From: Nitrososphaerales archaeon
Lineage (GTDB): Archaea > Thermoproteota > Nitrososphaeria > Nitrososphaerales > Gagatemarchaeaceae
Length of the DNA: 64,000 nt
Reading direction: 5' to 3'
Assembly: GCA_032906705.1 (NCBI GenBank)
Contig: JAJTZC010000001.1
Coordinates: 9,464 to 73,463 of the forward strand
Positions within the stretch are counted from its first letter, which is position 1. Each line of letters starts with the position of its first letter. The notes under the pieces were generated by a model. It was not told where the DNA came from and did not search any database. It saw only the letters and a list, made by a program, of their open reading frames with translations. The position numbers were made by a program, and so were the translations under genes. Of this stretch, positions 49,242-61,588 are shown piece by piece.

Positions 49242-49281
49242 CAAGAACTGTTAAATCGAGTCGGGCTGGGGGATTCACGCT

Positions 49282-49767
49282 TTGAAGGTCAATCTCGGTA
49301 CCCTGAAGGACAAGGGGGATGAGCTGGTGACGTTCCTGGAACCCAGGGTCGGAACCAAGCCGAGCGTCTCCGGGGGAGTGCTCGAGATAGACGACGCAGG
49401 CCTAAGGGCGGGCGTCAAACCGAGACACGTGAAGACCTACATCAAGAGGTTCCTGTACACCAACAAGCTGAGGAAGAACTACAGGGTCTTCGTGGCTGGG
49501 CGTGAGTTGACCGTCCAGGAGCTCGAGCTGGGCGAGAGGGAGGAAGAGGAGAGGGAGAAGGTGAAGGAGAAGCTCGAGGAGGCAGAGAAGGAGCAGAAGG
49601 AAGAGAGGGAGGGTCAGGAACAGAAGAAGGCCGAGGAAGAGAAGACGGGTGCCTCGGAGAAGGGAGCGGCCAAGAAGAGTCCAGAGAAGAAGGAACCCAA
49701 GAAGGAGAAGAAGCCGAAGGCGCCTGCCAAGCCCAAGGCGAAGAAAGAAGACGGCTCCAAGGACTAG
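49282..49767 (+). CDS. eL22-like small protein with ~80-aa Glu/Lys-rich tail
   Basis: The first ~80 aa are collinear with eukaryotic ribosomal protein eL22 (FLEPRV...SGGVLEI...KTYIKRFLYTNKLRKNYRVFVAG.RELTVQEL versus FLQERI...GGGVVTI...[32 protein letters not shown]), then an acidic/basic tail. TTG start. Confidence 0.5.
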   Translation: MKVNLGTLKDKGDELVTFLEPRVGTKPSVSGGVLEIDDAGLRAGVKPRHVKTYIKRFLYTNKLRKNYRVFVAGRELTVQELELGEREEEEREKVKEKLEEAEKEQKEEREGQEQKKAEEEKTGASEKGAAKKSPEKKEPKKEKKPKAPAKPKAKKEDGSKD

Positions 49768-50219
49768 GCTCTGACCTTTCGCAGCCGCTCGCGACGCTTC
49801 CGCTTCAAGAGTGTCCTCAGGTAGTTTCGTGCCTCACGAAGCGCCTTCAGGGAAGCTGCGAGATGCCCAGCCTCGAAGCGCTCGATTGACTCGCGCAGGT
49901 TCCGAAGCGCGAAACCAACGGCCTGTCGTTCATCAGGTACAACGTAGTGCTTCGAGTTGATGAAACGTCCGGGGTTCTCCTCGTCCAACTCTACCTTGAC
50001 GAAGACAACGCTCTTCTCCACGAGGAGGTAAGCCTCCCAGAGCGTGCGGAGCTGCTCACCAGTCAGCTCGCCCGCGATGGAGGATACGAGCGACTCCAGG
50101 TTGTCCCGCGCATGCCTCAAGTCGTTCTTCGTTTCATCCTGCCAGCTTGAATCGACGCCAGTGTTTGCAGTCATGATGTCGGAGTCATCCTCGACTGTAA
50201 CCAGATTTATAACGGACAC
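49764..50219 (-). CDS. hypothetical helical protein with basic C-terminus
   Basis: 151-aa ORF. No family recognised. Confidence 0.45.
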   Translation of the reverse strand: MSVINLVTVEDDSDIMTANTGVDSSWQDETKNDLRHARDNLESLVSSIAGELTGEQLRTLWEAYLLVEKSVVFVKVELDEENPGRFINSKHYVVPDERQAVGFALRNLRESIERFEAGHLAASLKALREARNYLRTLLKRKRRERLRKVRA

Positions 50220-50233
50220 GAATCGGGCGAAGT

Positions 50234-50917
50234 TTGATGCCCAAGAAGGACGAGCCGAGCCTCAGCGGGGCGTGCTTCGTGAAACTTGAATCGCTTGTCG
50301 ACCTCGGGAGGCTCTCGTGCTTCCAGGAGCGGGCACCCTTCCCCCTGTTCGCAATCAAGAAGGACGGTAACACGTGGATAGCTGCACAGGCTGACCTCTT
50401 CATGGGCGTGCCTGTATTCTACTACGCGGAAACCTCTGAAAACGGCGAGTTCCTTGCCTACAGGAAGGGGCCAGACGGCGAGGAAGTCAAGCTGCTCGAA
50501 GGGGCAAACAACGCGTCGTTCCTCTACGCGCCCATCATCAAGGCGGTGAGACTCCCGAGCCGCCTCGACCCGAGGAAGGATTTCCCCGACAGGTTCATGG
50601 CGATGGAGGTCCGCGACCTCCAGAGCCTGGCCAAGGTTGCGACCTACAAGATGTTCTTCGAGGAGCCTCCCCTGCCCCTCTTCGCGTTCAAGACCGGGGA
50701 CTCCTGGGTGATCGGGACGTTTGCGAGGATAGACGACTATGAGGAGGCGTCGATCTTCTTCTACTGGAAGACAAAGGAGCAGCCGAATTCGGGCTTCGTC
50801 CGCTACAAACCGGACAAGATCGGAGACACGGGGTTCGTGTCGAAGACCGACGAGCACGGATACAACTACGTGAAGGTCGTGAAGTTGGCCGAGAAGCACC
50901 CGCTGGTCGAGCTCTAG
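50234..50917 (+). CDS. unknown protein built from two homologous ~100-aa repeats
   Basis: ERAPFPLFAIKKDGNTWIAAQ...VPVFYYAETSENGEFLAYRKGPDGEE versus EEPPLPLFAFKTGDSWVIGTF...ASIFFYWKTKEQPNSGFVRYKPDKIGD. Confidence 0.55.
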   Translation: MMPKKDEPSLSGACFVKLESLVDLGRLSCFQERAPFPLFAIKKDGNTWIAAQADLFMGVPVFYYAETSENGEFLAYRKGPDGEEVKLLEGANNASFLYAPIIKAVRLPSRLDPRKDFPDRFMAMEVRDLQSLAKVATYKMFFEEPPLPLFAFKTGDSWVIGTFARIDDYEEASIFFYWKTKEQPNSGFVRYKPDKIGDTGFVSKTDEHGYNYVKVVKLAEKHPLVEL

Positions 50918-55259: not shown

Positions 55260-56258
55260 CTATCGCTTTCTTATTGATTCTTCAGGTGGGTCGTCGACGC
55301 CCTTTTCGTCCAGCATGAAGACCGCGTCTCGCTCAGGGTGGTACGGGCTGTCCACCATTCTGGCGATCCTGTTCTTGGCTGCCTTCCTGAGATAGATTCT
55401 GTATGTGCTCGTGTGCGCAACTACGTGGCCCCCTGTCGGCCTCGTCGGGTCGCCGAAGAATGAGTCCGGCGCCGATTGGACCTGGTTGGTCACCACAACG
55501 GCGACGTTGTAAACTTCCGCTGTCCTGATTAGGAGATGCATGAACCTGTTCAGCCTCTGCTGCCTTTCGGCCAGCGTGCCCCTTCCCACATATTCGGCCC
55601 TGTAGTGGGCCACGGCGCTGTCGAGGACGAGGAGTTTCACTTTGTTCGCTTCGATGACCTTCCCCAGGTCCCTCACTATCAGCTCCTGGTGGGCGCTGTT
55701 GTAGGCCCTCGCCACGGTGATCCTGCTCAGGATTTCTTCTGGCTTCAGGTCCCTTGCCTCTGCGATCTCGGAGATTCTTTCGGGCCTGAAGGTCCCTTCC
55801 GTGTCTATGTAGATTGCGGCGCCGTCGAGCCCCCCTTGGTCGTGGGGCTGCTGGACCATTACGCTGAGGGTGTGGCAGATCTGCGATTTCCCGGAGCCAA
55901 ACTCCCCGAAGAACTCCGTCATTGCCCACGTCTCTATGCCCCCTCCGAGCAGGTCGTCCAGGTTCTTGGAACCTGTCGAGATCCTGTCGATTGCAAGCCT
56001 CTTCTTCATGAGGTCCGAGGCTGAGATGAAGTCAGGCTCGAGCCTACCCAGCTCGACGAGCTTCTTCCTCGCCTTGTTGTTCAGCTCCACAGCCTTTGAA
56101 ACGTCGATGTCAACAGCGTCGGCGATGTCCATCGGCCCGGCGGTCGCGAGGTCCAGGACGCTGTAGATCCCGGCATCGTTCAGCTTCTGCTTCGTCGCGG
56201 GGCCGACGCCAGGGAGTCCGGTGAGTTCGAGATTCTTCTCGACCTCAGTTTCAGTCAA
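55260..56258 (-). CDS. radA: DNA repair and recombination protein RadA
   Basis: HhH N-domain (LTGLPGVGPATKQKLNDAGI), Walker A GEFGSGKSQ, and YIDTEGTFRPERI. Confidence 0.95.
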   Translation of the reverse strand: MTETEVEKNLELTGLPGVGPATKQKLNDAGIYSVLDLATAGPMDIADAVDIDVSKAVELNNKARKKLVELGRLEPDFISASDLMKKRLAIDRISTGSKNLDDLLGGGIETWAMTEFFGEFGSGKSQICHTLSVMVQQPHDQGGLDGAAIYIDTEGTFRPERISEIAEARDLKPEEILSRITVARAYNSAHQELIVRDLGKVIEANKVKLLVLDSAVAHYRAEYVGRGTLAERQQRLNRFMHLLIRTAEVYNVAVVVTNQVQSAPDSFFGDPTRPTGGHVVAHTSTYRIYLRKAAKNRIARMVDSPYHPERDAVFMLDEKGVDDPPEESIRKR

Positions 56259-56295: not shown

Positions 56296-57621
56296 CTAGG
56301 GGGAGATCCGTGAAACTGTTCTGGGGAAGAGGCTCGCAGACCTGATGTGCCTGAGCCCGGCGATCCAACGCGTCGTCCGCTCGACTCCTATGCCGAAGCC
56401 TGAGTGGGGAGGCATTCCGTACTTCCTGAGCTCAAGATACCATGAGAACGACTCTGTGGGGAGGTCCTGGCTCGCAATTCTTGCCATGAGGTCCCTATGG
56501 TCATGAATCCTTTGCCCCCCTGTCGCAAGCTCTCCGATGCCCTCGGGGGCGATGAGGTCGGCAGACTTCGTCACCTTCGGCCTGTCAGAGTAGGTCATGT
56601 GGTAGAAGGCCCGCGCTGCAAGGGGGTAGTCCGTAATGAAGAAGGGGGAATCCTCCGTCATGCTGACGGCCCTTTCGGCCTCTGTGGGGATGTCTTCGCC
56701 CCATTCGAACGGAAAGCCTGCTTTGGCGGCTACCGTCCTCGCCTCGTCGTACGTGATCCTGGGGAGCGGGAGAGTGGGTTCCTTGATCTTCCTTCCGAGC
56801 GTCTTGAGCTCATCCTGGCGTCTCTCGACGACCCGCCTCACCATTGCCGCGAGCAGTTCCTCCTGGACCCTCATATTCTGCGGCTGGTCCACAAAGGCTT
56901 GTTCCGCCTCGATCATCCAGAATTCCGTTAGGTGCTTCGGCGTCTTCGACTTTTCGGCCCTAAAGGCGGGCTGGAATATCCACACCTTCTGGAGCGCGGC
57001 GAGGGACGCCTCCTCGTAGAACTGGGCGCTCTGGCTCAAGTATGCCTTCTTCCCGTAGTAGTCGACGCCAAAGAGCGTCGACCCGCCCTCCACTGCCGCC
57101 TGCACGAAGGTCGGCGCGCTGATGAGGCAGAAACCGTTCTTGGTGAAGTATTCGAAAGCGGCGCCGATTACGTCGGCCCTGATCTTCATCGCGGCTATGG
57201 CCTTCGGCCCCCTGATGCTGAGGTGCCGCTTGTCGAACAGGAAGGAGGCCGACTTGACCGCCGTCTTCGTGATGGGCCAGCTCTCCGAGAGCGAGACGAC
57301 TTCGAACTCCTTGACGGTTATCTCCTTGCCCCCGGGGGCGCGAGGGTCTTCCTTGACGTCGCCCTTGACCGTCACCGCTGACTCCTTTGTCGCTGACTTT
57401 GCTGCCTGGAATGCTCGATCGGACGCGACTCCTTTCCTGGCCGAGACTTGGACGTAACCTGTGCCATCCCGCAGCAGGATGAACACCAATCCCCCGACCG
57501 TGTGCCTCCTCGCGACCCAGCCGTTCAGTTCGACCGCCGGGTTGGCAACGCCGCGAGTGACCTGGGCTGCGGTGGTCGGAGCGAACTTATCGTCCTTCAC
57601 GGTCTCCACCCGCGACCACAC
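56296..57621 (-). CDS. asnS: asparaginyl-tRNA synthetase (class IIb)
   Basis: QPAFRAEKSKTPKHLTEFWMIEAEQAF (AsnRS-type motif 2 region), an OB anticodon-binding N-domain, and GFGIGVERT...FPR. AspRS cannot be fully excluded without alignment. Confidence 0.75.
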   Translation of the reverse strand: MWSRVETVKDDKFAPTTAAQVTRGVANPAVELNGWVARRHTVGGLVFILLRDGTGYVQVSARKGVASDRAFQAAKSATKESAVTVKGDVKEDPRAPGGKEITVKEFEVVSLSESWPITKTAVKSASFLFDKRHLSIRGPKAIAAMKIRADVIGAAFEYFTKNGFCLISAPTFVQAAVEGGSTLFGVDYYGKKAYLSQSAQFYEEASLAALQKVWIFQPAFRAEKSKTPKHLTEFWMIEAEQAFVDQPQNMRVQEELLAAMVRRVVERRQDELKTLGRKIKEPTLPLPRITYDEARTVAAKAGFPFEWGEDIPTEAERAVSMTEDSPFFITDYPLAARAFYHMTYSDRPKVTKSADLIAPEGIGELATGGQRIHDHRDLMARIASQDLPTESFSWYLELRKYGMPPHSGFGIGVERTTRWIAGLRHIRSASLFPRTVSRISP

Positions 57622-60017: not shown

Positions 60018-61106
60018 CTACCGGGTGACCTCTGCAGCCTTGACGGCCTCGTAGAGCCGTCTTGCTGACGGGTCCTTTTCAAAGTGGGTGCGAATCGGAG
60101 CGACGACCTCGTCAAGGGCCGTTGCCACGCCTTTCTTCAGGTCGGCGGGATGGAGCGCACCGTTCCTGTACGCATCCTCGAGCTCACCGTAGGAGGCGAA
60201 CTCCACGTCGCCACCGTATTTTGCGGGCCGCTCGACTTTCAGCCCCTTCATCTTCCTGAAAACGATGTACTTCGAGTACTCGAGCACAGGATTCCCCTTC
60301 ACGACCTTCTGGGGGCAGTAGGCGTCCCCGAGCTTCTTCGCGATCGCCTCCCTGCTGTCATGGACGAAGATCGAAGTCTCTGGCCTGCTCTTGCTCATCT
60401 TGCTCGCGATCTCCTTGTCTATCGACGGGTCTTCGTCGAACCCCTCGGGTTCCCTTGCCCCCTTGAGTCCCATGAGCATGTGGTGGTGGACGGCAACCGG
60501 CCTCTTCCAATGCAGCTTCTCCGAGACCTCTCTCGCGAGGATGTTAGCACGCCTCTGGTCCAGACCAAGCTGGCAGATGTCCACGTCGAGCCAGAATATG
60601 TCGGCCACCTGCATCATCGGATACAAGAGCTGCGAAGTCTGGACGAGGTCCTTGGATGTTCTGCCCATTATGCTTATCGCCCTCCGGCTCCTCGCAAGCG
60701 TGACGTTCTGGGCGACGCGAACTACCTTCTTCCAGTAGTCGTCCCCCTTTACTGCGTCGCTTGTCCAGAGCAACTCAACGTTCGAGACGTCAACTCCTGC
60801 GGCCTTCCAGACCTCGATGAAGTAATCGCCGACCTGGTGGATCTTGTCCAGGTCGCCTCCCATCTTGTTGTTCAGCCAAGCGAACCAGTCTGCAATCCAG
60901 AGCTTGAAATGAACGCCTGCCTTCTGCAGGTCGTTGATGTTTATCGCTCGCAGGACGCCGAATGCTATGTGTGCAAGCCCGCTGGGCTCGAAGCCGTCGT
61001 ATGCGGAAGGGTGGTCGTTCGTCGCGAGCAGGTCGCGAAGCTCCTTCTCGGTGATGATTTCTTCGCCGACCCGTCGCACATGGTCCAGCCTCGTCTCAAG
61101 GTCCAA
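60018..61106 (-). CDS. tyrS: tyrosyl-tRNA synthetase (archaeal type)
   Basis: With TTG at 61106 the N-terminus reads (M)DLETRLDHVRRVGEEIITEKELRDLL..YDGFEPSGLAHI, the typical archaeal TyrRS start. KMSKS motif present. The longest ORF (479 aa) runs through ctaA and was rejected. Confidence 0.9.
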   Translation of the reverse strand: MDLETRLDHVRRVGEEIITEKELRDLLATNDHPSAYDGFEPSGLAHIAFGVLRAININDLQKAGVHFKLWIADWFAWLNNKMGGDLDKIHQVGDYFIEVWKAAGVDVSNVELLWTSDAVKGDDYWKKVVRVAQNVTLARSRRAISIMGRTSKDLVQTSQLLYPMMQVADIFWLDVDICQLGLDQRRANILAREVSEKLHWKRPVAVHHHMLMGLKGAREPEGFDEDPSIDKEIASKMSKSRPETSIFVHDSREAIAKKLGDAYCPQKVVKGNPVLEYSKYIVFRKMKGLKVERPAKYGGDVEFASYGELEDAYRNGALHPADLKKGVATALDEVVAPIRTHFEKDPSARRLYEAVKAAEVTR

Positions 61107-61150
61107 TCTGCGTGCTCGCCCCTCATCCCGACGGATAAAACCGTTCGCGG

Positions 61151-61588
61151 CTAGTCCGTGTCCATTGCCAGGGCTGCCACCGCAAATCCGAAGATCAGTG
61201 TCGCTGTGGCTTGATGGAGCGCCACGAGCGCAGGACCGAGGTTCTGGGCCACGACGAGCGCCCCGAGGAAAATCTGGAAGAGAAGCAGAAGTGAGGCAAC
61301 TATCAGCGCCCTGGTTGAGGGGTTCGGGCCAGTGGCAGCCCTCCAGTAGAGGAACGTTGTCACGAAGAGGAAGAGAGATGAGAGAGCCGCAAGGAGCCTG
61401 TGCGAGTACTCGACGATCGGCCCAACTTGCGCGGGGGGGAAAAGGTTGCCGTTGCAAAGAGGCCAGTCCGCAGGCACCTGCGATCCGCAGGCCTCGCCGT
61501 AGTCGCCGGCTGCAACATACGCACCGACTACGATGACGGCAAAGAGAAAGAACAGCGTGTAGGCGAGCATCACTGTCCTGCCGTGCAA
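61151..61588 (-). CDS. ctaA: short four-helix heme A synthase (CtaA/COX15 family)
   Basis: ACGSQVPADWPLCNG Cys pair, EYSHRLLA and ALHQATA His motifs. 145 aa with 4 TM segments. Confidence 0.65.
   Translation of the reverse strand: MHGRTVMLAYTLFFLFAVIVVGAYVAAGDYGEACGSQVPADWPLCNGNLFPPAQVGPIVEYSHRLLAALSSLFLFVTTFLYWRAATGPNPSTRALIVASLLLLFQIFLGALVVAQNLGPALVALHQATATLIFGFAVAALAMDTD

Follow-up and report, generated by a model that had tools for sequence, protein, structure and literature searches.

The eL22-like gene and its surroundings

Within the 64,000-nt stretch of DNA analyzed here (the window), a complete ORF of 161 codons, with a TTG start and a TAG stop, lies on the forward strand directly downstream of uppS. 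This ORF, which we refer to as the eL22-like gene, encodes a protein with a predicted eL22-fold domain at its N-terminus and a long charged tail. The coordinates of these features, together with those of the neighboring genes discussed below, are listed in Table 1.

Table 1. The eL22-like gene, the parts of its product and nearby genes in the window.
Feature	Position	Strand	Basis
TATA-like box TTAAAT, ~28 nt 5' of the start codon	49251..49256	+	read from the sequence
CDS, eL22-like protein with charged tail	49282..49767	+	orthologs share the aligned start position
Predicted eL22-fold domain, residues 1-83, strand-helix-strand-strand-helix-strand-strand	49282..49530	+	AF2 model, structure and profile matches
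Helix 2, residues 47-60, aligned to the eL22 RNA-binding helix	49420..49461	+	A1 columns, HMMER alignment
Tail, first half, residues 84-123, Glu-rich, 18 acidic/11 basic	49531..49650	+	composition; polarity in 62 orthologs
Tail, second half, residues 124-161, Lys/Ala/Pro-rich, 15 basic/7 acidic	49651..49764	+	composition; ortholog polarity
151-aa ORF	49764-50219	-	
227-aa ORF	50234-50917	+	
RadA	55263-56258	-	same window
Class II aaRS	56299-57621	-	same window
Trp/Tyr-type aaRS	60021-61457	-	same window

By comparison with its orthologs, which keep the start position and a TATA-like box, both the start codon and a putative promoter of its own are well supported for this gene. The start codon falls on the same aligned residue in the orthologous loci, being ATG in 33/74 and TTG in 41/74, and a TATA-like word is found at -34..-21 in 56/74 of these loci; in the window, the TTAAAT box sits inside the 40-nt gap downstream of uppS. 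As judged from these sequences, the mRNA would probably be leaderless or near-leaderless. The box keeps a fixed distance of ~-30 to -25 from the start (window 49251-49284; orthologous loci L002-L100), and a TATA-like box so near the start codon implies a leaderless mRNA. The TTG start that the window gene shares with the other TTG-starting orthologs is unusual for leaderless initiation.

Searches with residues 1-85 in a 5.8-billion-protein collection returned more than 500 matching proteins (E down to 1e-47), and every named match was a "hypothetical" protein from Nitrososphaerota/Thaumarchaeota MAGs. Names such as TonB, VirB10-like and sRNA-binding, which homologs occasionally bear in JGI, were rejected, since they stem solely from the low-complexity tail. 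That the ORF is no real gene, its open frame being just a by-product of the purine-rich tract, has next to no probability and is already refuted by the conservation data: frames do stay open in low-complexity purine-rich DNA and a 48-aa antisense ORF is present at the same place, but the N-terminal 83 residues are not of low complexity and share 31-85% identity across 24 genomes, the database homologs number more than 500, the start position, the promoter-like box and the gene order are all conserved, and the AF2 model is confident.

The family of the host includes Ca. Gagatemarchaeum. The amoA gene was absent from the window genome and from a 100%-complete relative, and other families of the order have amoA; the host is therefore a non-ammonia-oxidizing, Gagatemarchaeaceae-like member of Nitrososphaerales. 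The eL22-like gene was found in 20/24 sampled genomes of the host's family and in 8/16 other families of Nitrososphaerales.

Most of about 98 loci share the gene order DUF373, uppS, eL22-like gene, 151-aa ORF (-), 227-aa ORF, NUDIX (-), inositol-1-phosphate synthase. The first-pass annotation of this DNA had described a housekeeping neighborhood, and RadA, two aminoacyl-tRNA synthetases and uppS are indeed found nearby. Among the loci examined, no ribosomal-protein genes lie beside the eL22-like gene, nor beside the canonical or paralogous copies of eL22 in Bathyarchaeia and Asgard archaea, and the gene neighborhood is uninformative as a clue to the function of the protein.

The 227-aa protein of this neighborhood has no Pfam match, accompanies the eL22-like gene in 91/98 loci, including those of distant families, and appears by eye to consist of two similar halves (..PFPLFAIKKDGNTW.. 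and ..PLPLFAFKTGDSW..). The 151-aa ORF and the eL22-like gene are convergent, and the 3' end of the former overlaps the stop codon of the latter by 4 nt; this ORF likewise lacks a Pfam match, and it is conserved at 30-66% identity in 65/98 loci.

Relationship of the N-terminal domain to eL22

The domain formed by residues 1-83 has a pI of 9.85 and a net charge of +6. Neither the whole protein nor residues 1-83 matched eL22 when scanned with Pfam and NCBIfam, and all matches that were returned, such as Paf1 and ProQ, were discarded as low-complexity noise from the tail. A search of the window's own genome with the eL22 model PF01776 found nothing at E<=10, and the window protein falls below the gathering cut-off of this model (23.6 bits), that is, outside Pfam-level membership. 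The missed match reflects the limited sensitivity of a single model rather than a biological feature. The same model directly matches 10/24 order-mates, weakly (best E 3.9e-5), and 54/119 representatives of the wider family.

For more sensitive comparisons, we used a profile of 24 Nitrososphaerales domain homologs (A1) and a broader family profile (A2). When A1 was searched against all PDB sequences with HMMER, eL22 accounted for nearly all of the 51 listed matches (best E 3e-5). Against 1.8 billion representative proteins, this profile matched 186 clusters and reached a protein named '60S ribosomal protein L22 [Ca. Helarchaeota]' by NCBI at E 2e-6. From 20 Asgard proteins that score above the PF01776 cut-off, we built a separate alignment, which hhalign matched to A1 with a probability of 98.9% (E 2.8e-17, 81 columns), and the neighbors in the ESM Atlas were Bathyarchaeota 'L22' clusters. 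The first-pass annotation had held that the lack of a significant profile hit would speak against eL22; such a lack is true of stock Pfam on this one protein and untrue of the family profiles.

The structural comparisons were made with an AlphaFold2 (AF2) model built from A1 (pLDDT 84.7, pTM 0.72), and it is this predicted model that has the eL22 fold. The top 50 PDB matches in Foldseek were ribosome or pre-60S entries, and those that were cross-checked were eL22 chains (TM up to 0.75-0.76). With VIA-align, 13 eL22 chains ranked first among 48,161 PDB representatives (Z 11.1-7.1, rmsd about 2 A over 77-85 residues), followed by generic alpha/beta plaits (Z 6.1 and below). The comparison of an AlphaFold model with eL22 by Foldseek, which had been suggested as a check, thus recovered the eL22 fold (TM 0.75).

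Since the sequence profiles and the predicted structure agree, we consider the homology to eL22 established, and residues 1-83 almost certainly descend from a common ancestor with eL22 and are predicted to adopt the eL22 fold. The original proposal that the first ~80 residues align with eL22 is borne out by four agreeing lines (PDB profile, hhalign, predicted fold and ESM Atlas). Its alignment blocks FLEPRV/FLQERI and GGVLEI/GGVVTI were reproduced by the HMMER and structure alignments, as were KTYIKRFLY...YRVFV against ...LRVVA and the N-terminal strand against KFTLDC.

A different explanation of this likeness would be that proteins without shared ancestry converged on a widespread alpha/beta (ferredoxin-like) fold. 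Eukaryotic eL22 shares just 11-24% identity with the eL22-like protein, generic alpha-beta plait domains are also among the structure matches (Z 5-6), and the acidic tail contributes part of the HMMER score. Yet many of the A1-PDB alignments span positions 12-75 only, leaving the acidic tail out, and still reach E about 1e-3, and the evidence from sequence profiles alone is strong and specific. Moreover, intermediates in Bathyarchaeia link the Nitrososphaerales proteins without a break to Asgard members that score above the PF01776 cut-off, and every other fold lies 1 to 5 Z units below the eL22 chains. Convergence is thus highly improbable.

The columns of A1 that are invariant (K51, Y53, K55 and L58) or nearly so (R56, F57, R64 and R68) fall, in the HMMER alignment, on the eL22 segment that carries the RNA-binding helix. 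In human eL22, RNA binding is abolished by mutation of this helix from KKYLKK to EEYLKE, and Lys to Glu changes within residues 73-89 of yeast eL22 gave RNA-binding-site mutants (PMC3750023, PMC5755908). The helix motif of Asgard eL22, YLKRFLH, is almost identical to that of the Nitrososphaerales family. We infer, on good grounds, that helix 2 of the eL22-like protein would bind RNA, since its conserved residues map onto the helix mutated in eL22 and the Asgard motif is nearly the same.

Compared with eukaryotic eL22 (RPL22; PF01776; PDB 7o7y_BU, 3j79_X and the 4ug0-type chain LU), the predicted fold is alike (Z 11.1, rmsd 1.9 A over 79 residues, TM 0.75), the alignment is collinear, the basic helix lies at the mapped RNA-binding site, and an acidic run comes right after the domain. 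Apart from the low identity and the score below the Pfam threshold, the eL22-like protein differs in that it is missing several loop residues and the basic N-terminal extension of about 15-35 residues found in eukaryotic eL22, its domain having 83 aa as against about 100. It also ends in a 78-aa Glu/Lys/Ala/Pro tail, whereas eukaryotic eL22 ends in about 10 acidic residues. Eukaryotic eL22 is ribosomal, whereas the eL22-like protein is known here from its sequence and predicted structure.

The charged tail

The tail (residues 84-161) contains 23 E, 23 K, 8 A, 5 P and 5 G among its 78 residues, in good agreement with the first-pass annotation, which had noted an acidic run after the domain and an ~80-aa E/K/A/P tail. 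The accompanying description of the tail DNA as 'almost pure' polypurine was overstated, as the coding strand is 80.5% purine at 49540-49760 and its longest pure run is 28 nt. The tail DNA is the most purine-rich 221-nt stretch in the 64-kb window (maximum 0.82 at 49530, window mean 0.51). Of the tail, the AF2 model covers residues 85-88 only, with pLDDT below 50; judging mainly from composition, the whole tail is likely to be disordered.

Across 74 loci, the total length of the Nitrososphaerales orthologs ranges from 80 to 182 aa (median 146), and in 62/74 of them the domain is followed by 30 residues or more. These tails are rich in E (30%), K (25%), A (16%) and P (11%), and their polarity is that of the window protein, with 841 acidic vs 457 basic residues in the first half and 430 acidic vs 672 basic in the second; they often end in a K-K-P-R-A-K-K-K-like cluster. 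Distant families of Nitrososphaerales carry a short acidic end only, like eukaryotic eL22, and the long tail is therefore best seen as a lineage-specific elaboration of the usual acidic tail. Some Asgard eL22 proteins above the Pfam cut-off (L116:1426-1788(-), L129; G367, G356) have long, almost pure Glu/Leu/Ala acidic C-terminal tails, so that expansion of the eL22 tail occurred more than once in archaea.

A long extension is also present in Drosophila RpL22, where we take it to be Ala/Lys/Pro-rich and histone-H1-like, as is the end of the tail of the eL22-like protein. Both proteins thus combine an eL22 domain with a long charged extension, which is N-terminal in the fly protein (PDB 4v6w_CU, 299 aa, domain at ~193-299) and C-terminal in the eL22-like protein. 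Lying at opposite ends, the two extensions were acquired independently.

Distribution, paralogs and proposed role of the family in Thermoproteota

In the literature, eL22 is described as a eukaryotic signature protein that occurs among prokaryotes in Asgard archaea only, and its presence there has been cited in support of the view that, among prokaryotes, the Asgard ribosome most resembles the eukaryotic one. The first-pass annotation likewise restricted eL22 to eukaryotes and Asgard archaea, which is correct for the searchable literature and incorrect for the databases: '60S ribosomal protein L22' is the NCBI name of Bathyarchaeia homologs, among them that of Ca. Bathyarchaeum tardum, and eL22 outside Asgard is therefore already known at the database level. 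With a broad profile, we detected the eL22 family in 73/301 sampled Thermoproteota genomes, with a strongly patchy distribution among the families of this phylum (e.g., 15/16, 13/14 and 4/4 genomes vs 0/24, 0/20 and 0/18). The PF01776 cut-off was passed in 25/301 Thermoproteota genomes, by Bathyarchaeia proteins.

The archaeal proteins named '60S ribosomal protein L22' (Ca. Helarchaeota MHA1143217.1; Ca. Bathyarchaeum tardum WGM90519.1) are clear homologs of the eL22-like protein (hhalign 98.9%), with nearly the same helix motif (..YLKRFLH..), a core of similar size and genes that likewise lie outside ribosomal operons. They pass the Pfam cut-off, whereas the eL22-like protein and its order-mates do not, and they are proteins of 90-110 aa with short acidic ends, a few Asgard copies having long Glu-rich tails. 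In one Bathyarchaeia genome (G051, L136:815-1761(+)), the canonical eL22 gene lies 14 nt after a PhoU_div/DUF47 gene on the same strand.

Three Bathyarchaeia genomes (G190, G330 and G246) encode both a canonical eL22 and an extra eL22-like paralog. This second paralog, which is unannotated and was found by A1 at E 1e-10 to 1e-13, is the nearest clade to the eL22-like protein in the tree described below and has a similar N-terminal strand and helix motif. It differs in that it ends in a basic linker and a short aromatic motif, where the eL22-like protein has an acidic-then-basic polyampholyte tail, and in that it co-exists with a canonical eL22 in the same genome. Ca. Bathyarchaeum tardum, which has a canonical eL22, may also have this second paralog.

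The extra eL22-like paralogs are proteins of 100-135 aa, present as second (in one genome, third) copies (L099:2440-2772(+), L147, L153, L177, L178 and L180), their hosts being Bathyarchaeia and other Thermoproteota. These proteins end in a Lys/Arg-rich linker and a conserved aromatic motif (PPS..TLPYFFP, ..PPSTIKHGW or ..SWGL), which from its sequence looks like a short docking peptide.

A maximum-likelihood tree (IQ-TREE; 77 rows, 93 columns, unrooted, no eukaryotes) separated all 24 Nitrososphaerales rows and the second Bathyarchaeia paralog from Asgard and canonical Bathyarchaeia eL22 with support of 98/87. The eL22-like protein thus lies outside the canonical archaeal eL22 clade, which holds the Asgard and Bathyarchaeia proteins named L22. 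Forcing the extra copies together with canonical Bathyarchaeia eL22 cost 15.8 log-likelihood units (AU p 0.014, for a grouping chosen post hoc), and Nitrososphaerales plus the extra copies as one clade was merely not rejected (p 0.42). Because of the 98/87 split and the presence of both kinds of protein in the three Bathyarchaeia genomes, the window protein may be an ortholog of the second Bathyarchaeia paralog. This placement is provisional, since it comes from a short alignment and an unrooted tree that contains no eukaryotes.

A further derivative, the only form carried by ammonia oxidizers of the order, was observed in the amoA-carrying families (f12 and f4), which encode an eL22-fold protein of ~121 aa (L102:1408-1770(-), L103:1411-1770(-), L161-L176) in a gene order that differs from that of the window gene. 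The N-terminal 85 residues of this protein match A1 by hhalign (94.3%, E 9.6e-8), and eL22 takes the first 13 places among the structural matches of the AF2 model (pLDDT 84.9; Z 11.1-7.8). The basic helix has here turned acidic (..IKEFLDS..) and a C-terminal C2H2 zinc finger has been added (C-x-H-C-G...H-x3-H). The existence of this derivative in ammonia oxidizers indicates that the lineage can leave an RNA-binding role.

Taking sequence and predicted model together, we favor, with moderate confidence, the reading that the eL22-like protein is a diverged member of the eL22 (Ribosomal_L22e) family whose most likely role is to bind rRNA in the large subunit. The basic face of the helix would dock on 23S rRNA at the counterpart of the eukaryotic eL22 site, on the solvent-facing side of this subunit. 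The tail of 78 residues would stay disordered, its Glu-rich part extending the short acidic tail usual in eL22 proteins and its Lys/Ala/Pro-rich end contacting rRNA or neighboring proteins. The protein would belong to a second eL22 lineage, common to a Bathyarchaeia paralog, and as the sole eL22-family protein in Nitrososphaerales it would therefore probably fill the eL22 role. With the broad profile A2, the eL22-like gene is the only family match in the window's own genome (G000), which is 87% complete, so that a second copy may have been missed, and 4/5 high-quality genomes of the family have one copy, with a weak second match in G009 (E 7.8e-7). In the openly searchable literature, we found no thaumarchaeal ribosome structure or proteome that names the eL22-like protein.

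A less probable alternative to this reading is that the protein, as a paralog with the eL22 fold, does not belong stably to the ribosome and serves instead as a non-ribosomal or accessory RNA- or nucleic-acid-binding protein. Its function could then lie in RNA chaperoning, in ribosome assembly or, by way of the histone-H1-like Lys/Ala/Pro tail, in association with chromatin or the nucleoid. This would fit with its grouping with the second Bathyarchaeia paralog, itself found beside canonical eL22 in the same genomes, and with the post hoc AU test (p 0.014) that disfavors one clade for the two Bathyarchaeia copies. It would also fit with the C-terminal modules added by paralogs of this clade, aromatic motifs in Bathyarchaeia and the C2H2 zinc finger in ammonia oxidizers, which suggest partner binding, and with a gene unlinked to ribosomal genes. 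However, each Nitrososphaerales genome has this gene as its sole eL22-family member, and the basic RNA-binding helix is kept almost as in Asgard eL22. In addition, fast evolution could mimic paralogy in a tree of just 93 columns, and long charged extensions are also found on bona fide eL22, as in the Drosophila protein. We regard an accessory function as less likely than a ribosomal one.

Together with the favored ribosomal reading, the distribution of the family can be accommodated in an evolutionary scenario, which we put forward tentatively and hold to be somewhat short of an even chance. According to this scenario, eL22 would be no innovation of the Asgard-to-eukaryote line and would already have been present, and perhaps duplicated, in the ancestor of Thermoproteota (TACK) and Asgard archaea. 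The canonical lineage would persist in Asgard archaea and Bathyarchaeia, and the second lineage would have given rise to the aromatic-motif paralog of Bathyarchaeia, to the sole ribosomal eL22, with its new acidic-then-basic tail, in non-ammonia-oxidizing Nitrososphaerales, and to the acidified-helix zinc-finger protein of ammonia oxidizers.

Genes of the eL22 family are common in Thermoproteota, and a divergent unannotated branch is near-universal in non-ammonia-oxidizing Nitrososphaerales. The practical gain is modest, as several hundred 'hypothetical' proteins become annotatable. Our analysis broadens the distribution over which a supposed Asgard/eukaryote signature protein is known, overturning nothing, and brings to light a second eL22 lineage, which bears C-terminal additions of three different kinds. 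The origin of eL22 would move back to at least the TACK-Asgard ancestor, and eL22 would come off the list of Asgard-specific traits.
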